A stretch of 57,153 bases of DNA from the NCBI GenBank assembly GCA_048213135.1, contig PS015023.1:30869-88021 (forward strand), written 5' to 3'. The position numbers and the translations under genes were made by a program. Numbering within the stretch: the stretch's first letter is position 1; each line of letters begins with the position of its first letter. The DNA is from Reclinomonas americana ATCC 50394. Its lineage: Eukaryota. The notes below the pieces were generated by a model. That model ran no database searches. It worked only from the letters and a program-made list of their open reading frames with translations, and was not told the DNA's origin. Positions 40 through 46,623 of this stretch are shown here, piece by piece.

Positions 40-559
40 TTATATTTTTATGGGTATCCCACGTTGACCTGGAACACGCCCTCGTCGTAGACACCAAAGA
101 ACTCGAGCACCCGCGCAACAAGCACACATGATGGTGGAGGAGGCTGTTAAAGCTTACCGATACAGTACAAGATCAGATGTTTAAAATAACGCAGAATTGA
201 AGCACTCCTCGCTTGCATCGCACCAAGAACTCACTGTGAGTGGGGTGAGAAGCCAGTTGCAGGCCAATCATGTCACGGAGAGGTGTGTTGAATATACGCA
301 ACACATTGAGCTTGGTCTGCCAGCAGCAGAATGGGATCCGGAACAGTCTCATATGCATGCATGTTGCCTTTTAAATTTTGGGACTGTGCACGTACGCGTG
401 GGGGAAGGGAGGGGACAAGGAGTGAGAGTGGGGGAGAAAGAAAGAGGCGAAGAATCAAACACAGCGCTGCGAGCGAGGTGACGTGCAGCGAGTGTATGTG
501 TGCGTGACAGCTGCAGCTGACAATCCCTCGCACACACTCACTCGCCTGTGTAACATTCG
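40..559 (-). pseudogene. Decayed unprocessed duplicate of part of the TMEM184-family gene at 4465-9429
   Basis: Exons and introns align with about 6180-6660 (FCCWQTKLNV, EFLVRCKRGVLQF, VLEFFGVYDEGVFQVNVGYP). Indels shift the frame of the SQKGNMRLL exon, about 25 nt are inserted before a donor, and an acceptor region is deleted. It runs into an N-gap. Confidence 0.8.
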
Positions 560-2701: not shown

Positions 2702-2742
2702 TGGTATCCAAAACATCGATATCAACACAGACACCAATCCTA
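2702..2742 (-). repeat. Fragment of a dispersed repeat family (see 17745, 21010, 44745)
   Basis: Reverse complement reads gattggtgtctgtgttgat[atcgat]gttttggat, matching gattggtatctgtgttgatgttttggat near 44830. Confidence 0.7.
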
Positions 2743-2982
2743 GCATGCCACAGACAGTGTCAGATCTGCCACTGGACTGCCGCCGAGACTGCAGACGTCT
2801 GGTCCGTGGCAGATGACTGTCTGCTCAGACCTTGCTCTGTCTGCCACAAGGTCTATCGTGTGTGGACGATAAAGGTGTGTACAATTAAATGTAGTGCGCG
2901 GACAATGCTCGCCATCTTTACTTGCTCTCACTCACGCAATATAACCAAGCGCGCGCTGGCGCACTTGCCCTTCGTTCGAGCA

Positions 2983-3518
2983 ATGGCCTTCGAAAGCGAC
3001 CAAGCTCAACTTGACTGGCTAAACCGCGAGATCGACTGGGCAGAGAACTGCCGTCTTGATGAACCTCACACACTGTACGAGGAAGAAGGCAGCGATAACT
3101 ATTGGTTTGAGGTCCTCGTCTATCTTATTGAAAGAAACAGAATGTGGCTTGAGGCACTGGTGCCGAGGTCGCCTGAGCTGGAGTCTCGATGGAGGTGCGT
3201 TTTGTGTCTTCTTATATATTGCTGGTTTTCTTTTTGTTCATTTTTTCGAATTCAAGACGTGCAGAGCTGAGGCTGGCCTGGTTGCTGGTGGAACGTGGCA
3301 CTGTGCGGGCACTGCGTACATTGGTGCGCGCCACCAAATATGAGCTGCGCGACCCTTATTGTTACGGGAGAGGTTGGCAGACGCCCGACGTGTGGCTGTC
3401 GCTGACGGACACCGACAAGGTTGGCTACTNNNNNNNNNNNNNNNNNNNNNNNNNNNNNNNNNNNNNNNNNNNNNNNNNNATCGCCCGTAGCGGTGCAGGC
3501 GAAGAGGAAGACCATTAA
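2983..3518 (+). CDS. Small hypothetical protein, at least 2 exons, spans a short gap
   Basis: MAFESDQAQLDWLNREIDW...ESRWR, then a GTGCGT...GTGCAG intron, then in-frame AELRLAWLLVERG...DKVGY[gap]IARSGAGEEEDH*. No family recognised. Confidence 0.45.
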
Positions 3519-3713
3519 AGCGATCGTTGCCAGTAACTAGTTTGTTGGTTGCGTGAAGCATACGCATGCACAGCCAGAATTCTAGAAGAAGAAGGAGCAC
3601 GAAGTGCGACGTAAAAATCGAAGACTTTTCCAGTGGTTGCTCCGGTGCAAGAGAACGTAACCACCCCAGCCTGCACGTCCTCTATTGGCTGTAATCCTGG
3701 CCGGTTCGCACCG

Positions 3714-3761
<48 letters not shown>

Positions 3762-3802
3762 ACAACATCGATTCAGGCTCGTCCTGCGCAGCTGAAAACG
3801 AA

Positions 3803-4288
3803 ATGTCGCGCCACTTGGAGCGCGTTTCGTATGCGCCTGGTGGAGGCACAGGTGTCTACATTACTGCAGAAGACATGCTGCGGGCGGAAGCCGAAGAGGA
3901 CAGCAGCCACACTCCCAGCAGCAACGTGAGTCTCTCTCTCTGTCTCACTCTTTGTCTCACTCTCTCACACACTGGTGCAACAACAGCAGCAGCAAGTTGT
4001 AAACATTGTTCCGCGCGATCCTCTGGCGCCCAGTCGCGAGGTGTGATCAGTTGTCTCTTGCACTCACTCTCTCTCTCTCTCTCTCACACACTCACTCTCT
4101 CACACACTTGTGCACAGGAACGCGAGGCAGAGCGACCACAGATGTTCTTCTATTACCCCAAGTACTTGGACGTGGATGCAGTGACGCTCATTGCGCAGAA
4201 CCTCCTCGACACGTGGGAGAAGGAGGAGCAGGAGCAGGAGACAGAGGAGAGACGACGACAGCGCACTGTGCAGCCTCCTCCTCTGTGA
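3803..4288 (+). CDS. Small hypothetical protein, 3 exons
   Basis: MSRHLERVSY...PSSN|GTGAGT, QVVNIVPRDPLAPSRE|GTGTGA, EREAERPQMFFYYPKYLDVDAV...PPPL*. Splice sites are phase-compatible. No family recognised. Confidence 0.5.
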   Translation: MSRHLERVSYAPGGGTGVYITAEDMLRAEAEEDSSHTPSSNVSLSLCLTLCLTLSHTGATTAAASCKHCSARSSGAQSRGVISCLLHSLSLSLSHTLTLSHTCAQEREAERPQMFFYYPKYLDVDAVTLIAQNLLDTWEKEEQEQETEERRRQRTVQPPPL

Positions 4289-4464
4289 GAAAAATGTGGA
4301 TCTCAGCACGCCCCTCCAGTCAGGCGTGTCAACCCGCGCGCAGAGAGCAAGTCGATCGAGGACATCTGATCGAGGGCAGGCCAAGCAAGCAAGCGCACAA
4401 GTGTATCTCTGCTGGAATTGTTCATTTTATAAGTGGCTGTTGTGCTGCTGGCTGGTGGCCCATG

Positions 4465-7400
4465 TCAGAGAAGGCTTTCACCATCGTCGCCGTCGTCGGT
4501 GGATCGCGGTTGTAGAGGCTCGGTGCCGTCGTCAATGGCGGCGGTCTTGCTGCTCCGCTTCTTGCTCTTGCTCTTGCTCTTTCTCGGCTTGTCGGGGCGC
4601 GGTGCGGCGGCTGCGGCTGCGGTGGGAGCGACTGTGACGCTTGAGGAGTGCAGTGGTTGGAAGGCCTCTGTCTCGTCGCTGAGGGGGGCAGCAGCTGCGG
4701 CGGCGGCGGCGATGCTGATGGTGGTGGAGCGGGTGGCGGTGGCTGACAAGGGGAAGGACGAAGGGGAAGGGGAAGGAGGGAGAAGTGAGATGATGAGGGA
4801 ACGGGAGAGAAAATGGAAGTGGGAGACAGGATAGTGAGACGCGGGAAAGGAGGGAGACAGAAAAGAGTAGCAATGATCGACGGGACACACCTCGCTGTCC
4901 ACCGGTCTCCACATCCTCGACAACCGCCGCAGTGGTAGTCGTCGTTGTGCCGCTCAAGAACGACCCATAAGTCCCCGGCACCGATGACGCCGCCTCGGCG
5001 CGAATGTTGTCGAGGCGCTTCAGTGCGCGAGGCTGCTCACGAGCGACCTGCAGTTGCGACAGTCAGTACACGGACACGCTGCGACGAGGTGGGAAGAAGC
5101 ACGTCGCAACTCCAACGGAGCCGACCACCAGCGCCGTGTCCTCTTGCGTGGTGGCAATCGCGAAGTGACCATCGGCAGCGGCCTGAACACACTCGTGAGT
5201 CTGTAATCACTGTGCTTGCCCTGATACAGTCACACACCATGGGCTGCGAGTAGGCGTGGCGTGCACTGCTGCTGAAAGTCTCACGAGCATCCTGCACCAC
5301 GTCCTTGACCTGGAACAGAGTCTTAACCTGCGCGGAGGGGAGGGCGTCAGGTAAGTGGAGCGCTTCCAACTCAGGAACACCTCGCGATATACCATGCGAC
5401 CGAGCGGCAAAATTGGTCTCTCCTCCTGCACGTACACACACACACACAAATGCATGAGAAGGAGGAACGATCAAGTGGCGCATGTTGAACAACGCACCTT
5501 TCTCGCCTCGGCCTCTGATCGGAATGGCTTGTGGGAGAAGGCAAAGTAGTGTAGCATGGCAATTAATGCGACCTGTGGAGGGAGGGGGAAAGGGAGAGAG
5601 AGGAGATGAGAATGGCGAAACGAGAGGCAGGTGGCAACGCTGCAAGAGAAGCACATGCAACAAACCTCAATGCAAATGGCAAAATTCTGGAGGCCAGTGG
5701 CAATGTCTTGTGAGGTGAACGGAGGAGCGTCGTTGATCAGACCGATCTTGACGAGAATGGCGACAGCGACGCCTTGCCAGAAGCTGCGCTTGGCAGGTGA
5801 GCACACTTCCGACATACAATGAGCACGAGGCAGGCACACGCACCTGAAGAAAATGAGCAGCTTGATTGACCTGTGGCGGGGTGAGTCAGCAGGGAGCGCT
5901 ACATGGGAGAGTCTCTCACATTGGACGCACAGGAATTTCAGGAACGGGCTGTAGTTCTTGAGATCCTTGTGCACCGCTTGGTAGAACACGATAAGGAACC
6001 ACATGGATGCCTGCACGGGACACACAAGCGTGAGATGCGCCGAAAGTGTGGCGTACAACACGTCGACCACACACCGTCACACTCAGATTGTTCACAAAGG
6101 CTGCGCAGTGGTGGTGGACATGAATTGAGAAGCGCCAAGCAGATGGTTGTGCAATCTAGCAGCCAGACGTACCAATGTATGGGTAACCCACGTTGACCTG
6201 GAACACGCCCTCGTCGTAGACACCAAAGAACTCGAGTACCAGCGCAACAAGCGCACACGACGGACTGCGCCAGCAGCAACGAGTGAGCCTTTTCTTTGGG
6301 CACAGGAGAAGACTGTGAAAGCTCACCGAATAATGCAGAATTGAAGCACACCTCGCTTGCATCGCACCAAGAACTCACTGTGGGGTGGGGGCGGGAAGTC
6401 AGCTGCAGGCCAATCATGTCACGGAGAGGTGTGCTGAATATACGCAACACATTGAGCTTGGTCTGCCAGCAGCAGAAAGGGAACAGTAGTCTCATGTTGC
6501 CTTTTTGGGACTGTGGGGGAGGGGAGGGGACAAGGGGGTGAGAGAGTGGGGGAGAGAGAACGAGACGGAGAATCAAACACAGCGCGTGAGGTGACGTGCA
6601 GTGAGTGTATGTGTGCGTGATAGCTGACCATCTCTCTCACACACTCACTCGCCTGTCGACACGCGATTGCCTACTTTCCCCCACTCAAATTCGATCAGGA
6701 AGCATCTGTCTCGTTGATCTGTCAACTCGCTCACTGTCTAGCCACACACTCACGCATCGCCTAATTTCTCCTCTCACACTCGACAGGAACTATCTGTCTC
6801 GTCCATCTGTTACCTCGTTCACTTGGCCCACCCTGTCTCTCTCGCTTTCCCTCTTTCCCTCTCTCCCCGTCACACTCAAAGCCATCGCACTGCGTCTAGT
6901 TTCCTGCACAGAATTGCTCGCCTCTAGGCGGGCCAATCAACAGTTTCATGAAGCCACACGGCAGGCTGACCATCTCACTCGCCAATTGGCGCACACACTC
7001 ACGCATTGTCTTCTTTCTCCTCACGCTTGACAGCAACTATCTGTCTCGTTCATCTGTTTGGCCCACCCTGTCTCTCCCGCTTTCCCTCTTCCCCCACAGT
7101 CAACGCACTGCTTCTAGTTTCCTGCACAGATTTCGCTCGCCTCCAAGCAGGCCAATCAACAATTTCATGAAGCTACACGGCAGGCTGACCATCTCACTCG
7201 CCAACTGGCGCACACACTCAAGCATTGTCTTCTTTCTCCCCTCGCTTGACAGCAACTATCTGTCTCGTTCATCTGTTTGGCCCACCCTGTCCCTCCCGCT
7301 TTCCCTTCCCCCACAGCCAACGCACTGCTTCTAGTTTCCTGCACAGATTTCGCTCGCCTCCAAGCAGGCCAATCAACAATTTCATGAAGCTACAAGGCAG

Positions 7401-9169
7401 TCAGTGAGTCTCAAACAAAAGCATGCGCGACAAAGCCCTGCCCGGTCGCACCTGTACAACACAAACGCCTGCCCAACGAATGGTCGGGAAGAGTCAGCAA
7501 ACCGCCACAGCAACGCAAAAGGACGTTGAAACACACTCTCTCACCTCGTAGCTGCACCCAACACAGCAAATCGCGTACACGTGAGCAAATCCGAACAACA
7601 CGGCGTGAGATTGAGGGACAAGCACACACGCACCAATCACGAATCGTGTCGACATAGATGCTGGCGTCGCGGAAGCGCAGTGAGATCCATGAAGCAATGC
7701 CGTAGATCTGCGGGCGTGGAGAGAGTGAGAGAGAGGCGAGTACGCAAAGGGAGAGAAGGACGGGGGAATGGGAAATGGCGCTTCTTCTGGGCACTTTTCA
7801 GAGGCAGGAAAGAGGCGGAGACTGCATCTATGAAGCTTCTTCTTTCGATTATCAAAGACAGAGAGGGAGAGTGACAGGCGAGCGAAGACGGTGACTCGTG
7901 TGTTGCCTCGCTCGTAAAGAACAGGGAGGAAGGATGACGAGGAAGGGAAACGGCGCTTCTTCTAAGCCCTGGCATCTCATCTCCTCTCAGAAGCAGGGGA
8001 GAGGACGGAGATTATTGCATGTACGACGCTTCTTGCGTCGATTCTAGAGGACAGGAAGGGCGAGCGACAGGCGAACGAAGATGATGGTTCGTGTGTTGCC
8101 TCGCTTCTAAGGACATGAAGAAAGGATGACGAGGAAGGGAAACGGCGCCTTGCCTCGAAGAGAGGAGAGAAACCATTACATCTCTGCGATTCTCGCGTCG
8201 CTTCTCAAGGACGAGAAGGGTGGTTGAAGAAGGGTCGACTCTGCGCCCTCTGTGCCTCTTGTATCTCCTCTCTGACAAAGGATACACCATGTCTCGCTTC
8301 TCTTCTCAAGGAGAGGAAGGGTGGTTGAAGAAGGAACGACTCTGCGCCCTCTGTGCTTGTTGCGTCTCTTCTCTATGTGCGAAAAGACGAACGGAACGCC
8401 ATGTCTCGCTTCTCTTCTCAGGGAGAGGAAGGGTGGTTGAAGAAGGATCGACTCTGCGCCCTCTGTGCTTGTTGCGTCTCTTCTCTCTGAGTGCGAAAAG
8501 ACGAAGGGAACGCCATGTCTCGCTTCTCTTCTCAGGGTGGTTGAAGAAGGGTCAACTCACGCCCTCTGTGCCTCTTGCATCTCCTCTCTGAGTACGAAAA
8601 GACGAACGAAACACCACGTCTCGCCTCATACACCAGGAGGAAAAAAGGTCGCCTCTCCGCCCTCTGTACCTCTTGCCTCTTCCCCCACAAGAAGGAAACC
8701 ACCACATCATACACGTCTGTGTCGCCTCCATCTCAAAGAAGAGGAAGGGTGGTTGAGAAACGCGTCTCTCTTGGAGTCAAAGCGGACAACCTTACGCCAA
8801 ATGCCTCTCTCTCACACCTCCTCTGACAAGCAGCACGACTGCACAGAGGTCACGATCGACTACTTCCCTCCTCGCTCTCCCCTGGGTGCTTGCCCACTCT
8901 CTCTGTCTCTCCCTCTGTGTGTGTGTGCTCTCACTCACAGACTGCCTCACTTGTCTCACTCTCCCTCACTTGTCTTACGTGTCTCCCTCTTGTCTCTCTC
9001 ACTCACTCTCACACACTTACTCAGTTGTCTGAGCAACAACTCACCGGCACCATCAACAGAATGCGAACGACTGTGACACACAAAGAGAAGAGGAATCAAA
9101 TCATCACATGTGAGTGACAAGCACATACACACACACACACACACAAAGAGAGAAGAGAGCGCGCGCACG

Positions 9170-9201
<32 letters not shown>

Positions 9202-9282
9202 TGCGCGCGCGTAACTCACCCCAAATTTGTAATGCCGGGCGACTGTGCGCACACACACACACACAAGAGAGACAGTGAGTTG

Positions 9283-9320
<38 letters not shown>

Positions 9321-9429
9321 GCAACTAATAGTGAGACAAGTGCATGTAAATCTCCACCACTGAGAAGATGACAGCAACCCCGGCAAACACGCCCGCAATG
9401 AGGTACACTGTCCACAGTTGCATACCCAT
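4465..9429 (-). CDS. TMEM184: TMEM184/OST-alpha (Solute_trans_a) family membrane protein, copy A, about 19 exons
   Basis: Spliced motifs HLSHYYRPALQIWVVRILLMVPIYGIASW, YVDTIRDCYEAFVLYSFMKLL, CKRGVLQF, PFLKFLSIKLLIFFSFWQGVAV and GLQNFAICIEVALIAMLHYFAFSHKPF. Confidence 0.92.
6740..7400. repeat. About 217-bp tandem triplication containing a TMEM184 exon
   Basis: Exon copies at 7326-7389, 7109-7172 and 6891-6953, with shared flanking intron sequence. Confidence 0.9.
7760..8760. repeat. Degenerate intronic tandem repeats (about 90-120 bp units)
   Basis: Recurrent gggtggttgaagaagg..cgactctgcgccctctgtgc and catgtctcgcttctcttctcag. There is also a duplicated block ggatgacgaggaagggaaacggcgc. Confidence 0.8.
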
Positions 9430-9619
9430 CTTTACACACACACACTCTCTCTCTCTCTTCCTCCTCCTTTGCCTCCCTCTCTCTCTCTCTTTATCTGCCT
9501 CTGTTTGAAATGGACTGTGCCGGGACGATTTCATTCAATCACACGTGACAGACAGCGGACGGGGGGGCGCGCACTCTCACTATACATCTTTCTCACTCTC
9601 ATTCTCTGTTTTGCTCTCA

Positions 9620-11235
9620 TTAGAACTCCACGGTCATCTTGCTCTCGAGATCGGTGTTGCCCAGCATGTCCATGAACTCGGTGAATGAGATCTTGCCGTC
9701 TGTGGCAACCAATGGGTGAGTGAAGGAGAAGGCGAGGCTCGTGTGTGTGTATATATGTGTGTGTGCGTTGCTCTATGCGTGCGTCTCCTTGTTGTCTCAC
9801 TTCGTGTGCGTCTGTTGCCCTCTGCGAAAGAAGAGGTGTCTCTCTTCACCCCTCTGTCTCACTGTGTGTGCTGGTGCCTGTGTGCAGGCGCGTGTGTCTC
9901 TCTGTGTGTGGGGCATGTGTCTCTCACTGTCTTGCTGAGTCGGTACCTGTGCGTCTGTGCGCTTGCGGGCTTGTGTGCCCCTCTGCGCCGTGAGAGGCCT
10001 TTCTCACTCGATATTACTGTGTGCTGGTGCCTCTGTGCGCAGGGGCGTGTGTGTAGGTGTGTGTATTCGTGTGTGTTTCTCTGTATCTCACTGCGTGTGT
10101 CGGTGCCTGTGTGTACACGCGTGTGTGCAGGTGTGTGTGCCCCTCTGTGCATGGAGAGGTGTTCTCTCTCTGTCTCTCACTGCGTGTGCCTTATTTGTGC
10201 GTGATCATCTGCGTGAGAGGATACGTCTCTCTCCCTCTCTCTCTCTCACACACACGCACACTGCGTATGTGCCTTGCGTTGCGCGTGTCCCTCTGTGTCA
10301 CTGGGAATGTCTCTCTCTCTCTGCATCTCACTCCGCATGTGTCGGCGTGTGTCTCACAGTGTGCGTCAATCTGAGTTTCTGCTGCTCACCGCCGTCCTTG
10401 TCGGCCTCCAGAATCGTCTTGTCGACAATGTTTTGCAGCTGTGGGGCCAACGAGGTGAGCGGCAGAAGGGTGCGAGTGCGTGCGCGTCGTCATGCTTTGC
10501 GATACCTGCTGGTCGGTGAGGTTTGTGCCGACCATCATCTTGAGCACCTCGAACAGCTCGCGGTTGGTGATAAAGCCGTCGCCGTCCAGATCGTACACGG
10601 CAAAGGCGACTGTGTCACGAGAGTGGGTGAGTGGGCAGGAGGGTGAGTGTGTGCGACAGCGAGGGCACGCAACACTTGAGCTTGTCGGAGCTCTCGCCTC
10701 GTGACGAGAACACGGCCAGACCCTCCAGGAATTCCCGGAAGTTGACGTTCTGAGCAGGAGGGAAGCGGAGAGGAGGGAATGAGAAACAACAGCAGCCAGG
10801 AGAGAAGGTGAAGAGTGCTCACGTCTGCCTTCTTCTCGTTCGACATACTCGTGAAAGAGTCAAGAGTGCGGATGCAGAATGCCACCACACACTCTTTGCG
10901 CACGAAAACTATGTCACCTTCTTTCTCCCCGTCCTGTTCGTCGTCTTTCCTCCATCTTTGCCTCTCGCTCTCCATTCGTCTCTCTCTCTCTCTCTCTCTC
11001 TCTCCACGTCCTGTTCGTCGTCATTCCTCCTTCGTCTTTCTCACTCTCCATTCGTCACTCTCACTCTCACTCTCACTCTCTCACACACTTTCTCTCGCTC
11101 TCTCTCTCCCTTTGCCTCTCCCGCTCGCGCTCGCCACCAACCTCATCGCCGTTCTTGTCAAAAATGGTCACCACTCGCGACGCCAGTGGATTGACAGCCA
11201 GTTCTACACACGCCGACAAACAAGTCAGCCCAGAG

Positions 11236-11311
<76 letters not shown>

Positions 11312-12234
11312 TCTCTCTCTCTCTCTCTCAAAGAGACGCACGTGGAATGTCCATGAACTCCTCTTTTGAGATGTTGCCGTTGCCTTTAGAGAGACACAGA
11401 CAGAATGAGACTATACAGACTGCTGCAAATGAGAAATGGCACAAGCAAGAAAGGTGAGAACCATCCTTGTCAAGCTTCTGGAAGCGCTTGTACCTGAGAA
11501 CGCAAAACGTGTGAGTGAGTCAGTGAGAGAGACAGAGATTGTGAGAAAAGATCTGATATTTACGCAACAATCGCTTGACCTGAGGGCGATAAACGGAAAT
11601 GAGATTGATGTGAGTGATGAGTGAGCGTAAGAGGGAGAGTGAGAGAGAGAGAGAGTATGAGTGTGTGCGAGAGAGAGAGAGTGCGTGTCTGTGTGAGTGT
11701 AAGTGAGACTGTGTGAGCGATCATGTAAGATGAAATCATATGCTTGTTGTTGTCAACACAGTGCATGAATCTTGCGTGTGAGTGCTTTTGTGTGTCAGAG
11801 AGAGCGAGAGAGAGAGTGTGTGTGTGAGTGCGTGTCAGAGAGTTTGTGCGATCTTGTGCTGTCATGTGAATGTGTGATGACCTCACGCGCTTGCTGTTGT
11901 CAACAAAGAGCATGCGTGTGTGTGCTTGTGTGTGTGCCTCTGTGCGCCTGTGTGTGTGTGAGAGAGCGTGATGTCCCGTTGCACTCTCACTCACACGCAC
12001 GTGCACGCACACACTTGCGCGCGGCTGTTTGCGGTGACAAGCAGTGTGTACGCATACGCACCTCCTTGTGTGAAAAGTTGGTGGAGCGTTGAAGCTCCTC
12101 AATCTTCACAACGCACACGCACATAAACATAAACTATTATGAGCATCTCCAAAGAGCGACAGTTTGCTCTCAGACTCGTTGTGTGTGTGTGTGCGCACCT
12201 CCTCCAGCTTCAGTGACGTGTTGTTGGCACCCAT
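9620..12234 (-). CDS. CNB1: Calcineurin regulatory subunit B (4 EF-hands, N-myristoylation-type start), 10 exons
   Basis: Spliced: [50 protein letters not shown]...[24 protein letters not shown]...[63 protein letters not shown]...KMTVEF*. Confidence 0.96.
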
Positions 12235-13239
12235 GGCTGCTGATTGTGTTGTTGCGCGGACGGAGTTGCCGTTGTGGGACGTGTGTGGGACTTGATTGGC
12301 CGCCGTGCTCGAATCGTTGTCTGCGTACATAAAAAGCGCACGCTCGTTGGTTGCAGTTCTCGAGGGTATCGCAGAGAGCTCCGGTGGATCCGGAGGCGTT
12401 CACTGAAGTGTGCTTGCATGTCCGGATTGAGCCGAATGCGGAAGCGATATCGACTGCTAGCGCTCGCAAGGTCGGCTCACATGCGGATGCATTCAAGCGC
12501 ACAAATTTGCATGTGCATCATCTTGAGGCTGGGCTTTTGTGGCTCCAGAAACGAATTTGAAATCGGCGATCGATCCACAGAGCTCGGAAAAGGTCGATCG
12601 ATCTTGGTCGGTCGCCGAAGGTGCCGTCGGTCGCAAAATCGAGTGCACTCGCAATCGGTGCCTGCTGACGATCCCTTTCTGCAGCAGCCACAACAACAAC
12701 TCCAGGGTGCATGCTCGCCTCATTCCCATAGTCGCGGCATTGAGTTCAACGAATTCGAATTCTGCCTCGATCGCGAAATAGTACTTATCGCAAAGAGCGA
12801 TCGTTTCCGCGCCTGTCAATGCAGGGGGCCCTGCCTTCTTTACAACTGAATCCTTCAGCAACGCTGCGTCTATGCGCGGTTGCAATCGAGTATCGATATC
12901 GAGTATCGATATCGTGACGTCGATCGATCGCGCGCGCGACGTCGACAGGTCGATCGCGAATTCGAATCCCCTTCGCAAGTCGATTCTCAGCCAATACAAC
13001 CTCCAAAGGCATCCACGCTTGACCCTCCAGCCACTCGATCCTGCCCTTTCCCGCACACACCCTTGAACACAAACACGAAAAACCAATCGACCGAAATTCT
13101 TGGCGGGAAATCGACGTCGATGCTCACTCACTCACTCGTCGTCGCTCGCGCCTTTCTCGCCTCGCCCTCACGCTCCCTGCTTCTCCTCCCACCCCGTCTC
13201 TCCCTCGCCCATCGCCACCGATCGGCACTGCTGTCACTC

Positions 13240-14038
13240 ATGAGTGGCGGCGGCGAAGAAAACCATCAACACCACCACCTCACAGTGTCATCGCTGGCCA
13301 GTGGCTCCTCCTCGTCCTCCAACCCCTCATCACCAACTGCTTCCCCAGGCGGCAGCTCATGTTGCGTGCACGTACACACACGCAACAAAGTGAGGCTGTG
13401 TGTTCGTAAATAGGTACACTGTCTTCTTCTTCTTCTTCGTCGCTCACTCTCATCTACACAACAGCAGCGAGTGAAGTCGAGGGCGATCCTCTTGTCCAGT
13501 TCATCGTCATGCGAAGAGATCTCGAAAAGGTGATTGAGGAACCATCACATCATCATCGCTCTCTCTTTCTGACATCTTTTGCCTCACAGGAGATGCACTG
13601 GCCAACGGGCGCACTCATCTCACAAGCGTGTCACGGTGAGGTGTCCCTTCCATTCTCACTCTCACTCACTCACTCTCCCACTCTGCGCTCACCAATGGAA
13701 CAGCCTGCGTGTCGATCATATGGACGACGGCGACCGATGAGCAAACGGCGCACTACGTTCACGATCGTATGCACAAGGTGGTGAAGGAGGTCAAGGACGA
13801 GAAGGCTCTGCTGGAGTGCTCCAGACACTTGGAGACATCGGGTGTTGTTCACAAGTTGTGGGTGCGTCTAGATGTCTCCAGCCGCAGCACTCTTTCTCTC
13901 TTTCTCTCTCTCCTGCTCAAGCCTGCGCGCTGCGTGCAGATTGAGATGCCGGAGAACATTCCCACGTGTATCGCCACCAAACCCTACCCGCATAGCTTCC
14001 TTTTCCCGCTCTTCAAGAAGCTGCGTCTTTACAAGTAA
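13240..14038 (+). CDS. PTRHD1: Putative peptidyl-tRNA hydrolase, PTH2 superfamily, PTRHD1 type, 5 exons
   Basis: [63 protein letters not shown]. Confidence 0.9.
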
Positions 14039-14249
14039 ACCTCACCAGTGTACATACACGCGCCACGATTGGCTTTGCCTCCTGATAGAGAAGATGACTG
14101 TTGGAGAGGAGTAATTGTGAGTTCTGTATTCTGTTGATGATAGGCGGATGTGTTTCAATTGTTTTTTGCTATTCTTCCTCCATCACTATACCGACGAACG
14201 TCTATGAATATGGCGGTCGCCCTCCGCCTGTACTGCGTTTTCATGTACG

Positions 14250-16293
14250 TTACAACAAGTGTCTGTCGACGGTGCACTCGTTGACGACCAGGCGCCAGTC
14301 TCTCCACTCGGCACTGGGGTGCTCGCCGGAAAAGTGCAGCCAGCCGCGACCCTGCGGTTGGCAGGTGCCGAGCGGGCGCATCTCGTGCAGGCTGCAGTTG
14401 CGGGCCACGTGTGGCGGAGCGACGATCCACACGTGTTCTGGCGGTTCGGGAGCGGGGTCGTCGAAAATGAGCCGTAGCAGTGCTCGTTGTGCCTCGGCGC
14501 ACGAGTGCACCTCCATGAGCCACTCGACCGGTGCACCGCTGTCGCCCTGCGCCAGCGCGCGCGGCAGCAGGTACGTGCCAATGAGTAGCACGGGTTCGCG
14601 CGGATGCTCTGCCATGGCGCGCGCCACAGGCACCACGCCGGCTTGGTGGATGCCGCCCCAGAAGATGAGCAGGCCGGCGTTGAAAATCAGCCACACGACC
14701 ACCAGCCAGCGCGAGGGTGGCGCGTGCGGACAGGCCACCACCACCACCGGCGCCAGCAGCGGCAGCAGGAAGCGTGGCTCTTGATGTGGCGCCACAGACA
14801 GCAGCAGCATACCGCACACCACAATCTGCGCAGAGAGGCGTACGGCGTCGAGGGGCGAGGTGAGTGCACGCCACAGGCGCCAGTATAGCACAATCGCCAA
14901 GGGACCTGCACAGAAGGAGAGAGAGAGAAGGAGAGTGAGCGACTGGGAAGCTGGCGGCAGCACGCGTTGCTCGAGACCGTAGAGCATGGGCATGTTGACG
15001 AGGGCGTGTAAGAAGCGCGGATTGAGTCCGTGCCGTGCCAAGTTGGCCGGGTCCAAGTTGTACAGCAGATTGTTGAGTGGAGTGAGCACCAGGCGGAATC
15101 CCATCGAGGTGCGGAAGAACCACGAGTCGATCGCCACAATGCTCAACGCCGTCCACGCAGCCGCCAGCAGCCATGGCACAATGGCGAATCCTGCACCGCA
15201 AGGCGTCACGAAAATAAAATTGACCGAGGCGCAGAGAAGGGCCAACCCCAACCTGTGTAACGTGCTCGTCGCACCAAGTGCACCAGGAGTGGCAGCGCAA
15301 AGAACACAAACGAGAAACGCGTGAACACGGCAAACGAGAAGAGAGCGCCCAGCGCCACACTGCTGGTCACACTCTGCGTCACACCAATGAGACCACCGAA
15401 GAAAACGACACACAATCGCTCTCTTTTCTCTCTCACCTGCTTCGACGCGAGTGCCGCGCGCAGCAAGAGACACAAGCAGAGCGTCTCAATGCCGTTGGAG
15501 AACGAGCGCGTGAGCAGCGTCAGCGTCGCCCACGACGAGGCCACCAGCAGCGCGGCCCACGGTCGCTGCGCCGGCGTGCACAATCGACGCACAGTGTCGT
15601 CTGTGCCCACCAACAACACGTGAGCAACGTCACAGATACACACAACCACACCGCGGCAGCGCACCGACAACAAACGAGGAGAGCAGGAAGAGCAGGCGAG
15701 AGGCCACCAGCACCGCAGTTGTCGTGTTCACTCGAATGGAAATGAGCAGCATGATCGCAAAAAGAGAGCGAAACAACCAGTCGCTTACCCGACACGCCAG
15801 TGACAGCCTGCACAAGTGGATCCACGAATTCCTGCAGCACATACAACGGAACACCCGCAAAGATCGCTCTGCGCACGCACGAATGTTCCGATCAGAAGGG
15901 GGGAAAAAAGGAATCGCGCTTTTTTTCTCTTTCTCTGTTGGTTATCATCGACAACTCAACGGTGGAACAATCGATCGCGCGGGCGTGTGTCTCGCCTGGA
16001 ACTCCCACGCCACAAAGCGACGTCGACCAGTCGATTGTGGCGCGACAATCTCCACGCTTTGCATGAACTCATCGGCGTGAACGTAGCCCGGTAGCAACAC
16101 GCACGCACTCAACGCACGCACGCACACACAAGTCAGCCAACCAAACACAGAGATCGCTTTCGACGTCGCCACGGCGGCGCGCTCACCAGCGAAGAGCGTA
16201 CAGCGCAACGAGAATCACACGCGCGACGTTGCTTCTCCTGTGCGATGGTGAAGGCAAAGCAGCGCCGTTGCCGTTGACAGCAGCGTGTTTCAT
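14250..16293 (-). CDS. PIGZ: GPI mannosyltransferase 4 (GT22, PIGZ/SMP3 type)
   Basis: PGYVHADEFMQSVE, AWEF, TRSFSNGIET, TPLNNLLYNLDPANLARHGLNPRFLHALVN, PHQEPRFLLP and HQAGVVP. Confidence 0.92.
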
Positions 16294-17056: not shown

Positions 17057-19490
17057 CTATTTATCTTTTCTTTCGCTTGCTCTCTTTCTGTCTCTCTGTC
17101 TGTTTCTCCTTCTCTCGTGGATGTGCACACCCAGGAAAGGTTCGGTAGCCCGTTGTGAAGTCTCCTCACTGAAGGTAGCAGCGACTGTTTTGTCTACATC
17201 CTGCTCGCAACACTGTCACTCTGTCTCTCTCCCTCCTGAACGCGTACAGAGCAGAGCAACTGAGTCTGTTCGTGAAGGCTGTCCCTCTTTATCTTGCTTT
17301 CTCTCATCCAGACAGGGTGAGGTTGAGCAGCCACAGAGCAGTTGAGCTCCGTCAGTCTCTTTCTCTCTCTCAATCTCTCTGCCTCCTGAACGCGTACAGA
17401 GCAGAGCAACTGAGTCTGTTCGTGCAGGCTCCTCACTTGAAGATGGTTCGCAATAGCGTTGCTCTGATTTCGTCTCTCTTTCTCTAGCTGTCTCTCATCC
17501 AGACAGGGTGAGGTTGAGCAGTTGTAGAGCAGTTATGCCCCGTCAGTCTCTCCCTCTCCCTCTCTCAATCTCTTCTTCAAATCTATACGTCCTTCCCTGC
17601 AATCTCGCTTTGTGTTTTGTCGCCGTGGACTCCTCCGACATTTTTTCTATATTGCCCCCGTGCCATTGCTCTGTATTCTGTTGATGTGAACTCGTTGCGG
17701 TATTGAGAGGCTTCCAGTCACTGGGAGAGAGAGATCGCTGTACCTGTACTCATTGAAGACAGCTTGATGGTTGTTTGTTGGTGAACGAATTGCTGTTGTT
17801 GTTGAGTTTTCTCCGCAGCGGCGATTTTCTCCCTACCTATCTCTCTTCGCGATCTGCCCCCTCTCCCCCTGTGCTCTCCTCACCGCCTCCCCCTTCTGCC
17901 TCACCCACAGTCGACTCATGGTTCGGCGCACGATTCATCGACGCCTCCGTGTACCTGGATCTCATCCGCGATGCAGTTCCGCTTTACCCCCCTCTTCTCC
18001 TCCATCTCTCCGTTTCACCCCCACTAATTGCGCCGACTAATTGCAGTACGAGAGCTTCGTGCTGTGGTCCTTCATGCAATTGTGCATCAGCCTCGTCGGC
18101 GGTGAGCGCAAGCTCATCCGGATATTACTGAAGAAGGAACCCATTCGCTACGTGTTCCCGTTTTGCTGCTGGCGAACCAAGCTGGATGTGTTGCGTGCAC
18201 CGCCACTTCTCACGCTTCATCCTGTATTCTCACTGCGCGACTGTGCAGGCAATGGTTCACGCGAACTAAGGTACTGTCGTCGTCCACGTCACTCGCAAAT
18301 CATTATCACTAAACCTTCTCCTCAATGCACAGCGATGGGTCCTGCAGTTCATGCTCGTCAAGCCGGCCTGTGTTTCGTGCTCCTCTTCCTCTCTGTGTGC
18401 CTCCCCGACGTGTCCTCTCTCTCTCACCCGATGAGTGCATCAGGCCGTGCTGGCGTGCATTTTGCAAGTGTTTGGCGTGTACGGCGACGGCAACTTTACC
18501 ATGACCAACGGCTACACGTACATTACCATCATTGACAACACCAGCATTACGGTTGGTGGTGGTGGCGAGAGAGAGACACAACAAGACGAAAGAGAGGGAA
18601 GAGAGAGAGAGAAAGAAAGACAGAAAGAAAGAAAAGAGAAGAAAGAAANNNNNNNNNNNNNNNNNNNNNNNNNNNNNNNNNNNNNNNNNNNNNNNNNNNN
18701 NNNNNNNNNNNNNNNNNNNNNNNNNNNNNNNNNNNNNNNNNNNNNNNNNNNNNNNNNNNNNNNNNNNNNNNNNNNNNNNNNNNNNNNNNNNNNNNNNNNN
18801 NNNNNNNNNNNNNNNNNNNNNNNNNNNNNNNNNNNNNNNNNNNNNNNNNNNNNNNNNNNNNNNNNNNNNNNNNNNNNNNNNNNNNNNNNNNNNNNNNNNN
18901 NNNNNNNNNNNNNNNNNNNNNNNNNNNNNNNNNNNNNNNNNNNNNNNNNNNNNNNNNNNNNNNNNNNNNNNNNNNNNNNNNNNNNNNNNNNNNNNNNNNN
19001 NNNNNNNNNNNNNNNNNNNNNNNNNNNNNNNNNNNNNNNNNNNNNNNNNNNNNNNNNNNNNNNNNNNNNNNNNNNNNNNNNNNNNNNNNNNNNNNNNNNN
19101 NNNNNNNNNNNNNNNNNNNNNNNNNNNNNNNNNNNNNNNNNNNNNNNNNNNNNNNNNNNNNNNNNNNNNNNNNNNNNNNNNNNNNNNNNNNNNNNNNNNN
19201 NNNNNNNNNNNNNNNNNNNNNNNNNNNNNNNNNNNNNNNNNNNNNNNNNNNNNNNNNNNNNNNNNNNNNNNNNNNNNNNNNNNNNNNNNNNNNNNNNNNN
19301 NNNNNNNNNNNNNNNNNNNNNNNNNNNNNNNNNNNNNNNNNNNNNNNNNNNNNNNNGAGAGAGAGAGAGAGAGAGACAGAGAAGACTGGAGGGAGAACAA
19401 CACGGAAGAGATTTGAAGAGGTTCGAGAACAGTCAGAGCGCCCTTGACTCTTGACCAGGGGTGAATCATGTTAACCAACCTCGACCATCC

Positions 19491-19521
<31 letters not shown>

Positions 19522-20915
19522 ATGAGACGACTTGAAGGAGAACAACACGGAAGAGATTTGAAGAGATTCGAGAACAGTCAGAGCGCCCTTGACTCTTGAC
19601 CAGGAGTGAATCATGTCGACAATCTCGACCATCCAGAGAAAGAGAGAGACAGAGACAGAGCCAGAGACAGAGTGAGAATGAGATGACTGGAGGGAGACCA
19701 ACGCGGGAGAGATTTGCAGACATTTGAGAATAATCAGCAGAGCGCTCTTGACTCTTGACCGTGGGTGCATCAGAGATATGCAGACATTGGTGAATCATGA
19801 GTGCCAACCTCCCTCCCCCCTCGGCCCCTCCCCCTCGTCCCCTCCCCCTTCCCCCTTCTCCGACCGTGCAGATCTCGATGTACTACCTGATCATGTTCTA
19901 CGAAGCCGTCAAGGACATCAAGTCACTCCGCCGATTCCGCCCGCTGCTCATGTTCATCTGCATCAAGGTGAGAGCGATCTCGTGGAGTGTGTGCGCGCCG
20001 AGGCCCATACTGATGCAAATTTACGCAGATTGTCATTTTCTTCTCATTCTGGTGCGTTCTCGATATCTTCTTATCACCGAAAGAGTGCCCACTCATCAGC
20101 ATTGTGTGAACAGGCAAGGAGTGCTGGTGAGTCTGCTCGTCAAGTGGGGCGCCTTGCAAGACGTGGGCACGTGGACGACCGATCACATTGCCGCCGGTCT
20201 CCTCAACTTTTGTGTGTGCCTCGAGGTGCGGTGCAACAGTTCACTGGCGCGGTTGTGCTTTCTCTCAATCAACAGTGCGCAGGCCTATGTGATTTCGGTC
20301 TCCCACATTTACGCCTTCTCGCACCTGCCATTCCGACGCATGGCCGAGGCCCGCAACGAGACGCGCCCCGTCATGCAACTCGGTTGCGTCTCTCACTCTC
20401 CCCCACACTTGCTGCTCTTCGTCGCCTTACACGCTGTCGCCAGGCAAAATGGTCAAGGAGGTGCTGCGCACCAACGACATTATCGACGACGTGCGCATGA
20501 CCTACAGCAGTCGCGCAAAAGACGTGTGGAGCAGCGATGGATACCAGCAGGTACGCCGTGCCTGCACGCAAGCGCATCACAAGTGCACTGTTTGCAGCCT
20601 CTCATCCCCTCGCAACCCCAGGGCGACGACGAGGCCGCAGTCGGCGGCACCGGTGGCAGCTCGCCAGGCTCGGCCTCGGGTCGAGTTACGCCACCCTCAC
20701 ACCTTCTCTTTCCCCCACCCCCATCCTTACCCTCGGCATTGCAGCGCAAGAAGCGACGGCCATCCTCCGCTACCGGCTCGCAAGCCGGCGACAGCGATGC
20801 CGGCGACGGCCTCGAAGCTGTCGACTCGGGCGATCTGAGTCCAATCTCCAGTGTCGGCGGGTCCGGAGCTCCCCACGTAGCCTCCTCGGCACCCGAATTG
20901 AGTTCACCCGTGTAA
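16396..20915 (+). CDS. TMEM184: TMEM184/OST-alpha family membrane protein, copy B (spans a gap)
   Basis: HYYRPHQQIYVVRILLLVPVYAVDSW, YLDLIRDAYESFVLWSFMQL, KRWVLQFMLVKP, ISMYYLIMFY, NFCVCLE and HIYAFSHLPF. It shares several intron positions with copy A. Confidence 0.9.
19370..19800. repeat. Intronic tandem repeat, about 3 units of about 150 bp
   Basis: Repeated ggagaacaacacggaagagatttgaagag..tcgagaacagtcagagcgcccttgactcttgaccagg. Confidence 0.85.
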
Positions 20916-21009
20916 ATATAATATATCGAAGTCTGGCCTATTCTCGAGATTGGATGTGCTGTGTACGATCGCTTCGCGTCTATGCAAGTGCATCAAATCC
21001 ACTGTCGGG

Positions 21010-21172
21010 GCTTCAAACAGGTCGAGAACTGCGATCTTCACAGCATACGTGGTACACAAGGAACCTGCTGCTGCCTCAAGACTGGTGTTTGTGTTGATAT
21101 TTTGGATATATATGGTTGTACTTGGTCATCAAGACAGCTGTCGCTTGTTTGGTGAATGAATTATTGTTGTTG
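21010..21172 (+). repeat. Dispersed non-coding repeat (related to 44745-44912, 17745-17806, 2702-2742)
   Basis: Shares gaacctgctgc...tgtgttgat.ttttggat...cttggtcat..agacagctgt..gcttgttt..tggtgaatgaatt with 44808-44912. The block gtcgagaactgcgatcttcac matches 44755-44775 in inverted orientation. Confidence 0.8.
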
Positions 21173-21318
21173 AACAGAAGAAAACATGCCACTAACATCA
21201 AGACTGGTGTGTCTTGGATGATCAAGACATGCTTGGTGAGGTGACAAATCCCGATGAGACAAATATGCTCGCGATATCCAACTTCAATCACACACTCAAA
21301 ACAGACGCAGTGCATCTC

Positions 21319-23169
21319 ATGAGGCGGCCCGCCCACTGGGCACTCACTGTATCAGTGGTCGTGGTGCTGCTGCTGAGTGTTTCCGCGTTGGCATTACGAT
21401 CTTCGGTTTGTGAGAAGAGTTGCACACATAAGCTTCTCTCTCAAGTCTCTCACTCACTCTCGCGCACACAGAGGGAACGACAAGCCGATGACATTGAGCC
21501 TATCGGTACTAAAAAGCGCGCTCATTCTCTTGCTCACTGTGCGCACTCACACTCGCATGCGCGTGACAAAAAACGCAGAGGCCGTGGCTGTCTCACGACC
21601 ACTCTCACCATCCTCCGCAGGTCTTACACACACACACACACACACCGTCCACAATGACAGCTTTCAATCATCTTCACTCACTCACTTTTCTCTCTCTCTC
21701 TCTCCGTTGCCTGTCATTCTCTCCTCTCCCCCCCTCCCTCTCTCTCTCTCCCTCTCTCTCTGTCTCTCTGTTTCTCTCTCTTGTCACCCTCTCCTCTCCC
21801 TCAGCTCGTCGACTTCGTGGTCCTCTGCGGAGTGTCGACGACGATGAGCCAGTGGTGTTGGCCGAGTCGGAGATCGACTGGGGTTCCATGCTGGGATCTC
21901 TCAAGCTCGGCACCGATGACTCGGGGCGCATTCTCGACGACACCATCGATGACACGGATCAGGCCGGCGGTGGCGATCTGCTGGACCCTCCGTCGTGCGG
22001 CGGCAAGGCCGGTGGTGGTGGCATTGGCGGCAGCAGCAGCTTCCTTCGGCCACCGGCACCGACCAAGGACGACATGTTTGAGCAGCGTGAGGAGGTGGAG
22101 AAGTTGCTGAAGGATGCCGAGTCGGTGCTGGGCGGGGGCAAGAAGGGCGGCGCGAAAGGTGCAGGAGGCGACGGCGATGGTGGTGATGATGATGATGAAG
22201 ATGGCGCCGGTAAGGGCGGTGCCGGTGCCGGTGCCGGCAAGGGTGGTGCTGGCAAGGATGGCGACGACGGCGACGGCGAGGACGGGGACGGCAAGGACGG
22301 CGACGGGGATGGTGATGATGGGGAGGGCGGTGGCAAGGGCAGACGCGGAGGCAAGGGTCGCGGCGGTGACGACGAGGACGGTGGCGAGGGGCGCTCGGAG
22401 GAGATGTCCAAGTTGCTGAAGGAGGCCAAGGAGGCGGCGGCGGCCAAGGCCAAGGCGGCGGCGGCGGCCAAGTACAAGGCCAAGCTGAAGAAGCTGCAGA
22501 AGAAGCTCAAGTGCTTCAAGCGTGCACGCAAGCGTCTCAGTGCCAAGAAGCGCTGGCGTCGCTTGCAGGCCATGAGCGATCCGCTGGCCGGCAACTACGA
22601 CCGCATCAGCGACGCTCTCAGTCGTGCCATCAAGCACATGGAGACGAACATCTCCCGCGAGGTCAAGAGCCACCGCTACACCAAGGACGAGCTGCGCGAC
22701 GAGGTCGACAAGGCCTTGCATGCGGCTCTCAAGAGACACGAGGCGGAGGTGGCCAAGTCGGTGAGCAACAACAACAAGAACAAGAAGCAGCAGATCGTGG
22801 CGTTTGTGGATGAGGGTGCCGCGCCCATGCCAGCGGTTCGTGTCACATTCCCCTCCTTGTGCATTTGTATTTCCTGTTCATGCTTACGGTGTTGTCGAGC
22901 AGATGGACCCGAGTCTGACGCCGTGCGCTCGCATGCATGCCCGTTTGTTGGACATGTTCTTCAAGGCGGCGCTTGAGTGCCAAGTGGAGGAGACGCACGA
23001 CGCGACGGCCCCACCGGTGGACACTGCCAGCTGCGAGACGAGGCAGCACATGATGGAGGCACTGCAGGCCAAGTTCGCGGCGCACTGCCCCGAGTACACG
23101 GGTAAGTGTGTGTGGGTGATAAGGGATGGCACTGGTTGCTGACTGTCCTTCCGACCCGCAGACACGTAA
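21319..23169 (+). CDS. Predicted secreted protein with a Gly/Asp-rich acidic tract followed by a Lys/Arg-rich helix
   Basis: Signal-peptide-like exon MRRPAHWALTVSVVVVLLLSVSALALRS splices (GTGAGA..CAG, phase 1) into the long GC-rich ORF at 21804-22835. Further exons start MDPSLTPC and end with D-T-stop at 23169. Confidence 0.65.
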
Positions 23170-23256
23170 GGCTGTTCCATGCGGTGTCGCAGGAGCGTGC
23201 AAGGGAAAGTGGTAAAAATGGAAGAACATATGTTGGATCAGCATTAAGCTTCACTC

Positions 23257-25803: not shown

Positions 25804-25861
25804 CGCTTTCGATTCTCGCTTTCGATCTCCGTACGAGTGAATGCAGGACAGCAGCAACACT

Positions 25862-29344
<3,483 letters not shown>

Positions 29345-29398
29345 TCACTGGTGGAAGACTGAGCAGAGGACCACGCACAGGACTTCTTCGAGAGATGC

Positions 29399-32264: not shown

Positions 32265-32340
32265 TATATTTTCTTTCATTACTGTGAAGAGAAAAAAAGA
32301 AGGGAGCCATAAAGCGCGCAGTTATTCTCCAAGCTTGCAT

Positions 32341-35300: not shown

Positions 35301-35962
35301 GTCGCCACCCGCGTCGTCGTCGTCATCGCTGCTGGCCGACAAATCCATGGGGCGCACGTCCTCGTCGTCGCTCTCCGACTCGGGAAGTTCATTCTGCGCA
35401 GCGTGCGATTCAGTTGCCTCTTCTTCTCTCTGGTCATCCACAAGTGATCTCTGGTACCTTGCGCGAGGCCGGTGCTCTCCGAGCAACAGCCGACTTGGCA
35501 CGAGGCGCCTGCTGCAAGTCACGGTTCACTTCATGAGCACGTCCGTCACGGATGATGGATGACACATGCGGAGATGCGCAACGTTCTCCTGCCCCTGGGC
35601 CTTGCTGGCAGGCTGCTTGGCTGCTCGGGAGGCGGTGGCCTTGGTTGCGCGGGTGCCTTTTTCGACGGGCGGTGGTCCGTGCTCGGCAAAGAGTGCGCGC
35701 AGTTGGTCGGCCTGTGATGAGAGGGAAAGTAAGGAGGAGGAGGTGGAGGGAAAGAAGAAGACTAACATCAACAACAACAACAACAACAGCAGCAGCAGCA
35801 ACAAAGGGGAATGAGGAGGGGAAGAAGAAACCAGTGCGAGATGAGCTACAGACAACACAAGCTGCCAGACAGAGGAGACGACTGCAAGGAACGGATGCGA
35901 ATAGTGTGATGCTCACAAAGGAAGGGTAGGAAGCAAGCGCACTGAGTGAAGAGTTTACAACA

Positions 35963-35999
<37 letters not shown>

Positions 36000-36753
36000 G
36001 AAGGAGCAAGTTGAGCGAGACGACAAGATGAATGCGGGTGATTGAGAGGGCCCGGGGGCATGATGCTCGACAGGAAGCAATCACAGTGTGCGAATTCCCG
36101 GCGTGGGTGAAGAGTCTGAAACAAGAGAGAGAGAGAGAGAGAGAGAGGAGGAGTAAGAAGTAGAAGTAGTAGAGACGTACACGTACGAAGGACGGACGAC
36201 GTCGTACGAACCAACGTAGTACGAACCGAAACGGAAGGAAGGAAGGAACGGAAACGGAAGGAAGGTAACGTNNNNNNNNNNNNNNNNNNNNNNNNNNNNN
36301 NNNNNNNNNNNNNNNNNNNNNNNNNNNNNNNNNNNNNNNNNNNNNNNNNNNNNNNNNNNNNNNNNNNNNNNNNNNNNNNNNNNNNNNNNNNNNNNNNNNN
36401 NNNNNNNNNNNNNNNNNNNNNNNNNNNNNNNNNNNNNNNNNNNNNNNNNNNNNNNNNNNNNNNNNNNNNNNNNNNNNNNNNNNNNNNNNNNNNNNNNNNN
36501 NNNNNNNNNNNNNNNNNNNNNNNNNNNNNNNNNNNNNNNNNNNNNNNNNNNNNNNNNNNNNNNNNNNNNNNNNNNNNNNNNNNNNNNNNNNNNNNNNNNN
36601 NNNNNNNNNNNNNNNNNNNNNNNNNNNNNNNNNNNNNNNNNNNNNNNNNNNNNNNNCGAAGAGAAGGTAGGAGGAAGGAGGGTACGGTACGTACGCGCGG
36701 ACGAGGAAGAGTACGTACGACGACGACCGAACGACGACGAGAGAGAGAGAGAG

Positions 36754-36793
<40 letters not shown>

Positions 36794-42926: not shown

Positions 42927-43316
42927 CTTGTCGGCGACGTCGGCTGTTGCTGTGGCTGGTGGGTGGCGGTGGGTGGTGGTGGTGGTGGTGGTGGTGGTGG
43001 TGGTGGTAGTAGTACGGCGAGAGCAGCAAGTGAACTGGGCAGAGGGAGGGAGGGGGAGAAAGGAGGGAGTGAGGGAGGAAGTGGTCAAGAATTGTTGCGA
43101 AGTCGATGATATGCAAGCTGGGCAGACCAACATTTGTGGGTTGTGGTGGGCGAGTGATCAGCACGACTGGCAAGCTGCTGGTCTTGTGTGTATGTCTCAC
43201 AGGAAGCGATGGAACAGTGGTCGCGCGCGGGATTCTATTGTCTCGACTATACATTCTAATGTAACACCTCCACGTGTGCAGGCACTCCTGCCTGTGCGCG
43301 CGCTCACCCGACAACC

Positions 43317-44555: not shown

Positions 44556-44744
44556 CTTGCAGGCGGCTTGAGTACCACACACAACGCAGCGAGAAACTCA
44601 ACACGGTGGATCCCGTCAGTCGATCGATCCTGCAGAATCCGAGCGTGTACTTCTCTGCAGCCTCATTTACCAGGCGGTGCATCCGTTTATACGCATAGTA
44701 TAGGCGCGGGCACATGTATATGCATGCAACTCAACCACGCTTAT

Positions 44745-45871: not shown

Positions 45872-45960
<89 letters not shown>

Positions 45961-46550: not shown

Positions 46551-46623
<73 letters not shown>

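Follow-up and report, generated by a model that had tools for sequence, protein, structure and literature searches.

Excision of CACTA-type transposons may leave exactly the target-site duplication (TSD), its inverted copy and the TSD again (TSD-inverted TSD-TSD). In V(D)J coding joints, hairpins that are opened off-centre give rise to spacer-free palindromic P nucleotides. Short template-switch mutations and DUP-TRP/INV-DUP rearrangements, which are built in a direct-inverted-direct order, extend from tens of nucleotides to kilobases and carry microhomology at their switch points. For the hAT elements (Ac/Ds, hobo, Hermes), palindromic copies of the flanks and joints guided by microhomology are described in the accessible parts of PMC5873905 and PMC4561436. 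As far as the former reaches, Ac/Ds footprints are flank-derived palindromic insertions, for which the term P nucleotide is also used, with arms of at least 3 nt (47% in yeast, 20-30% in Arabidopsis), with microhomology guiding the joints after hairpin opening and with a heterogeneous outcome (28 types among 128 revertants). The PIF/Harbinger elements, with mPing, make a 3-bp duplication whose microhomology steers repair and decides its product (PMC4561436, accessible part). A 3-bp TSD is also given for CACTA / En-Spm / CMC elements in the accessible part of 10.1101/342816, which mentions their footprints without sequences. Finally, short inverted templated insertions at repaired breaks are reported from work on polymerase theta and SD-MMEJ snap-back synthesis.

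Here, we analysed a window of 57,153 nt, the whole stretch of DNA under study, which has spliceosomal introns and 56% G+C. The named relatives of its proteins are distant, the best ones being oomycete proteins (~28-32% identity). Rfam and tRNA scans of the window gave 0 hits, and two metagenome pattern scans, with a degenerate exon pattern and an exact 39-mer, returned 0 stretches each. The window opens with a contig showing 559 bases, followed by a gap of 724 N (560-1283). A gene fragment that adjoins this gap, hereafter copy A, was compared with its parent (B):

49-549, minus strand: copy A, a 500-bp DNA-level fragment of a TMEM184-like (Solute_trans_a) gene (alignment, translation and weak Pfam match)
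6178-6656, minus strand: parent stretch with Solute_trans_a exons and part of an intron (alignment and Pfam)

The script alignment of these two stretches gives ~90% identity over aligned columns, and the conserved parts differ at 37 of 405 aligned positions. Pfam PF03619 identifies the parent and the fragment alike. The C-terminal part of the parent (5471-6076, minus strand) matches with an E-value of 1.4e-18; 6159-6374 (minus strand, E 7e-5) and 6326-6418 (minus strand, E 0.007) match at family positions 115-166, and copy A matches weakly at 176-352 (minus strand, E 0.023), the last three scoring under the gathering score because the exons are short. A weak match of 7411-7797 (minus strand) to the N-terminal part of the family hints at an N-terminal exon. 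Homology places the parent, encoded on the minus strand, in the Solute_trans_a (TMEM184-type) gene family. The segment 6421-6511, which follows an acceptor-like pyrimidine tract and differs from copy A at 1 of ~74 positions, is probably a further parent exon ending at an acceptor-like site, to which Pfam gave no confirmation. Copy A appears to span two to three exons and parts of introns, and it reads as a dead or broken gene fragment because its homology to the parent stops inside an exon (at 49), a stop codon lies in frame within a 25-nt insertion and the presumed exon is thrown out of frame by 10 additional nt (350-362). The pseudogene status given to it in the initial annotation is upheld by these three defects.

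Some minor features of this gene family were also observed. Between two exons of the parent, a 71-nt intron with a GTTGCG donor is predicted (6350-6420, minus strand); its counterpart in copy A (240-260, minus strand) has 69 nt, so that the fragment reads through in one frame. The predicted parent intron at 6640-7400 holds approximately three tandem copies of a roughly 250-bp unit, each with the word GGCCAATCA, similar to one in the neighbouring exon region. Another Solute_trans_a (TMEM184-type) gene piece is located at 19794-20915 (plus strand), and the family therefore comprises at least two genes and a fragment in 21 kb.

Relative to the parent, six 6-nt insertions in copy A fit the rule that a trinucleotide u becomes u-revcomp(u)-u, hereafter u-rc(u)-u, and a further perfect 9-mer of this form lies just outside the aligned region:

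23-31: TGA-TCA-TGA, just beyond the A/B homology (9-mer match)
334-342: event 1, GGA-TCC-GGA, +6 nt (copy A versus parent alignment)
350-358: event 2, CAT-ATG-CAT, +6 nt (copy A versus parent alignment)
370-378: event 3, TTT-AAA-TTT, +6 nt, within a T5 run of the parent (copy A versus parent alignment)
386-400: events 4 and 5, GTGCACGTACGCGTG, GTG-CAC-GTG whose second junction carries a nested CGT-ACG-CGT, +12 nt
508-519: event 6, CAG-CTG-CAG-CTG, +6 nt (copy A versus parent alignment)

When the rule was undone by script, copy A became colinear with the parent here, except for 4 further nt that follow event 2 (359-362) and can be read either as CA-TG-CA or as a plain tandem copy of a 4-nt palindrome. 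Event 6 is equally described as a tandem copy of a palindromic hexamer and requires an adjacent T/C difference. The initial annotation had counted five 6-nt events and one 4-nt event; the 4-nt case is present but ambiguous, and the 6-nt events number six by its own list. Its nested reading of the 12-nt insertion at 386-400 accounts for the length exactly. By our reasoning, one event that adds palindromic bases from the two flanks does not yield this sequence. The rule covers the six exact 6-nt events, and 9 of the 15 indels in the script alignment are left unexplained. Among these are the loss of AGT (3 nt) around position 345, a gap of 3 nt around 421, 5 nt inserted at 468-472 and the insertion of roughly 25 nt at 160-185, for which a templated origin was sought and only 8-10-nt chance matches were obtained.

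In all six events (334-519), and in an additional one at 43928 (see below), the inserted bases are a spacer-free inverted copy of the immediate flank, and a direct repeat of fixed length brackets the scars (u...u, u = 3 nt), as in a footprint. The insertion sites share no common target motif, and no donor for the inserted blocks was found elsewhere in the window except short palindromic repeats. A spacing of roughly 10 bp between the first four sites offers too few points for a claim. Three events fall in the presumed exon 6421-6511 and two at its acceptor. Taking the intact parent as the polarising reference, as originally proposed, is sound for the insertion at 350-362: it shifts the frame of the presumed exon, and therefore at least those 10 nt are derived in copy A. 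The parent stretch holds exons, however, and is not neutral; selection on it explains much of the A-versus-B asymmetry. The opposite polarity would have an ancestor with palindromes that the parent lost by deletion between 3-nt direct repeats. Microhomology-mediated deletion can indeed collapse each u-rc(u)-u to u, and the 12-nt block is flanked by two GTG copies. However, with those 10 additional nt at 350-362 the ancestral exon would have been out of frame, as far as this partly predicted exon is concerned, and the origin of the palindromes would still require the same generating process. We consider this scenario hardly credible.

The comparison with the described systems reveals a partial match to each of them. 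The hAT elements make 8-bp duplications and heterogeneous footprints that usually lose bases, whereas the scars described here have a unit of exactly 3 nt and lose no bases, and the window shows no element. The 3-bp TSD of CACTA / En-Spm / CMC elements matches the 3-nt unit, yet the window contains no CACTA-type ends, element or transposase. According to the accessible part of PMC4561436, mPing is excised precisely and targets TTA/TAA, in contrast to the 6-nt scar observed here with u = GGA, CAT, TTT, GTG, CGT, CTG and GCA. The P nucleotides of V(D)J joints are likewise spacer-free palindromic additions; however, they are somatic and RAG-dependent, and they form u-rc(u) only, as the joints have no flanking direct repeat. 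Short template-switch mutations and DUP-TRP/INV-DUP rearrangements share the direct-inverted-direct topology but not the 3-nt unit free of microhomology. Polymerase theta and SD-MMEJ need a loop, copy sequence upstream of the pairing site and have no fixed 3-nt unit. In RIP and other defences against duplicates the mutated copy is a duplicate, as in our case, but the mutations here are of another type, show no transition bias and fall in hot zones that are partly non-duplicated in the window.

Chance does not account for these insertions. The interval 320-530 contains six u-rc(u)-u 9-mers, whereas 1000 Markov simulations averaged 0.05-0.08 and never exceeded 2-3; the parent stretch 6460-6650 contains none. 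For the whole window, 44 non-simple u-rc(u)-u 9-mers were counted (12.6 +/- 2.6 expected), with imperfect scars escaping this 9-mer test. The control arrangements u-comp(u)-u (16), u-rc-rc (17) and u-u-rc (22) all remain below 44; simple repeats confound the two other controls, u-rev(u)-u and u-u-u. With microsatellites masked, the unit length k had the following effect:

k = 2: 253 observed, 212-233 expected
k = 3: 50 observed, 15-21 expected
k = 4: 4 observed, 1.6-2.8 expected

The excess is specific to 3-nt units, with k = 2 and k = 4 at expectation. Six-base palindromes in general show no enrichment, numbering 884 in the window versus about 834 by naive expectation. The insertions are thus non-random and stereotyped, as the initial annotation had claimed from their regularity.

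The distribution of the signature over the window was examined by counting independent loci per stretch against Markov-2 simulations of that same stretch:

1-559: 6 observed, 0.12 expected (P 5e-9)
1284-2142: 4 observed, 0.38 expected (P 6e-4)
2702-3429: 2 observed, 0.14 expected (P 0.01)
12301-13000: 9 observed, 0.51 expected (P 4e-9)
43801-45200: 4 observed, 0.46 expected (P 1e-3)
3480-12300: 2 observed, 1.84 expected (background)
19357-36271: 4 observed, 4.6 expected (background)
46444-57153: 3 observed, 2.7 expected (background)

Altogether, 39 loci were found versus 13.2 expected; 25 of the 39 lie in the five hot zones and the remaining window is at expectation. Six of these u-rc(u)-u loci, on two short contigs, are 9-mer matches:

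1894, 1938, 2021, 2046-2060, 2715 and 3245: u-rc(u)-u loci on the two short contigs

The process is patchy, copy A being >100-fold hotter than most of the window. A process that acts at a uniform genome-wide rate is at odds with this picture, in which the counts in most of the window do not rise above chance and the enrichment is confined to a few zones of kb scale. The tandem-repeat blocks of the window contain no u-rc(u)-u 9-mer positions, except two in 38465-39000. At least two of the hot zones are probably 5' intergenic regions. An artefact of assembly, cloning or sequencing where coverage is poor is a very improbable source of the signature. Copy A lies beside a gap on a contig showing 559 bases, and the hot zones 1284-2142 and 2702-3429 are contigs of 859 and 728 bp between gaps, as an artefact might have it; the hot zones 12301-13000 and 43801-45200, however, carry the same signature inside contigs of 15.2 kb and 7.6 kb. 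Moreover, we know of no sequencing or assembly error that produces exact, nested 3-nt inverted triplications.

The initial annotation had also raised a targeted decay of duplicated DNA. This option is not borne out: the A/B pair shows no RIP-like bias towards C:G to T:A transitions (14 GC>AT versus 9 AT>GC transitions among the 37 differing sites of 405 that were aligned). Nor does the window hold a paralogue of the cluster at 12301-13000, the densest one outside copy A. The loci of this cluster are:

12386-12966: second cluster, 9 independent u-rc(u)-u loci in a CpG-rich stretch

This cluster holds 12 collapsible events with nesting up to four deep at 12916-12971, which mirrors the nested insertion of copy A. 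Simulations that keep the di- and trinucleotide content yield 0.5 versus the 12 observed. The cluster also contains 45 six-base palindromes (15-17 expected), and the CpG observed/expected ratio is 1.49 in 12370-12990. It probably separates two divergent genes, a minus-strand one starting at ~12236 and a downstream one encoding a PTH2 domain. Several of the palindromic words recur: TCGATCGATC occurs at 12568, 12596, 12920 and 44621, ATCGATATC six times with unrelated flanks (2046, 2052, 2715, 12892, 12905 and 45088) and CGATCGCGA three times in the window. The first two are mostly found in what appears to be 5' intergenic DNA. The recurrence of 9-mers such as ATCGATATC and CGATCGCGA suggests either a target preference or selected promoter motifs, and part of the enrichment at 12.3-13.0 kb may have one of these origins. 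That the enrichment outside copy A consists largely of selected palindromic promoter motifs, with copy A as a separate oddity, is a stronger proposition and an improbable one. The four occurrences of TCGATCGATC, the unrelated flanks of ATCGATATC and the likely 5' intergenic position of two hot zones, one of them with the CpG ratio given above, all speak for it. On the other hand, many different palindromes are involved, the structure at 12916-12971 is nested in the way of copy A, the simulations keeping composition fall far short of the observed number, and neither copy A nor the event at 43928 is accounted for.

This last event is polarised by a second paralogue pair, as judged from the alignment of two small-GTPase genes (43830-44545 versus 46620-47340):

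43928-43936: GCA-TGC-GCA, +6 nt within an intron of GTPase copy 1 and missing from copy 2 (alignment and probe test)
44327-44340: TGA-TCA-TGA / ATCA-TGAT-ATCA in GTPase copy 1, a probable insertion with an ambiguous local alignment

The probe test for polarised events, which misses those <14 nt apart, recovered only 508/511 and 43928; a match at 11998 was set aside for its low complexity and 6 mismatches. The tandem small-GTPase copies themselves (43300-44555 and 45140-47340, minus strand) have ~70-80% DNA identity and diverged introns.

We tentatively attribute the insertions to excision footprints of a cut-and-paste transposon, or family of transposons, with a 3-bp TSD, a reading to which we give slightly less than an even chance. 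First, the element would insert and duplicate 3 bp (u) on both sides. Its excision would then leave each flank as a covalently closed hairpin, and both hairpins would be nicked 3 nt from the tip. The resulting palindromic 3' overhangs would be complementary over their terminal 3 nt, because both flanks end in the same u, and could anneal, be filled in and be ligated. The product would be exactly u-rc(u)-u, with a gain of 6 nt. This hairpin-nick geometry is our own derivation; the steps that it combines are described for Ac/Ds (PMC5873905) and, as to repair steered by TSD microhomology, for mPing (PMC4561436). Clusters and nesting may reflect repeated landing in the same accessible DNA, either by local hopping or by a preference for nucleosome-free or 5' regions, together with an attraction to the small palindromes that earlier visits had left. 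DNA transposons have known insertion preferences, and 5' intergenic hot zones fit them. In our analysis, spacer-free palindromes with a constant third direct copy would need a prior direct repeat together with palindromic nucleotides derived from the flanks, as a hairpin break without target duplication would give u-rc(u) only. The 3-nt specificity fits a fixed 3-bp duplication. Of the options listed in the initial annotation, the hit-and-run transposon footprint is thus the best explanation, in that a hairpin-type route acting on a 3-bp direct repeat gives both the spacer-free palindromes and the third direct copy. Most likely, the transposon excision footprint, a scar of known kind, is represented here in an unusually clean and dense form. 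Against footprints, the six scars are perfect here, whereas known hairpin footprints are heterogeneous, and six visits in 190 bp imply a very high local rate. The recurring 9-mers and the missing element (see below) weigh on the same side. Our literature search for this footprint found no description of TSD-inverted TSD-TSD scars or of their clustering.

When 53 kb of the window were searched for inverted ends bordered by target duplications, no convincing element emerged. The only two candidates with 3-bp flanks (12231-15176 and 53973-54117) rest on short or low-complexity matches. The latter (145 bp, with GT/GA-rich inverted ends of 16 nt and GTT on both sides) may represent either a miniature element or a fortuitous low-complexity match. 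The 34 reading frames compared with Pfam included no transposase match, and a general repeat search of the window was swamped by microsatellites. Occurrences of CACTA and TAGTG are scattered, none of them paired as ends around a hot zone of the window, and the combination of CACTA-type ends with a Transposase_21/24-type protein is not found within it.

The lack of a visible element in the window would be accounted for if a nuclease of the host, such as a domesticated transposase or one engaged in abortive integration, made staggered 3-bp breaks in accessible DNA, with ends that became hairpins and were resolved to u-rc(u)-u. The 3-nt specificity, the spacer-free palindromes and the hot zones support such host break-repair as much as they support footprints. 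Nevertheless, filling in a staggered break produces a direct rather than an inverted duplication, and this route therefore still needs a duplication step followed by hairpins, as transposition provides. To our knowledge, no element-free 3-nt break-repair pathway of this kind exists in any organism, and we regard the idea as doubtful. In more general terms, a locally targeted process without a resident transposon might add revcomp(u)+u beside u in accessible or duplicated DNA and hit its own products again, which we judge less likely than footprints but to have a real chance. The outcome would be nested palindromes, promoter words of palindromic form and, perhaps, the (ACGT)n blocks at which the assembly breaks.

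Template switching during replication or repair synthesis, also among the initial options, would copy u, take 3 nt off the complementary strand and return, perhaps in a burst while the fragment was being copied. The direct-inverted-direct topology is what such a switch and return yields, the events cluster in one copied fragment, and templated inverted insertions are reported from the polymerase theta and SD-MMEJ work. This origin nonetheless has little probability in our view: no complementary junction dinucleotide, and hence no microhomology for priming on the other strand, is offered by the parent sites (GGA|A, CAT|G, TTT|T and GTG|G), snap-back synthesis requires a loop that is missing from these palindromes, and neither the 3-nt specificity nor the 12301-13000 cluster, which within the window does not represent copied DNA, is explained.

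If the insertions are indeed excision footprints, the window records transposon visits that left no element behind. Such hit-and-run visits are normally invisible to genome annotation. They would rank among the main local causes of indels and, in copy A, compete with substitutions (6 events versus about 30 substitutions in ~400 nt). Should no element exist, the scars would argue for a break-repair route, so far undescribed, whose geometry is fixed at 3 nt. In either case, exact u-rc(u)-u is a simple searchable signature, which could gauge hit-and-run transposition and hairpin repair in any genome and serve to ask whether scars seed palindromic regulatory words.

Two further features of the window deserve mention. 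Three assembly gaps (26380-27040, 36180-36760 and 45960-46560) are flanked by (ACGT)n runs, with ~25 copies at 45968-46067, and have degenerate GTAC/CGTACG-rich blocks beside long (CT)n/(GA)n tracts. These unusual palindromic (ACGT)n microsatellites probably caused the three gaps, and the (ACGT)n/GTAC blocks might be the end product of repeated palindrome-building events. Besides, a dispersed repeat of ~110-130 nt is present near gene ends at 21054-21167, 44801-44914 and 17750-17796, with 80% identity between two copies, and includes the short inverted pair TCAAGACA / TGTCTTGA.
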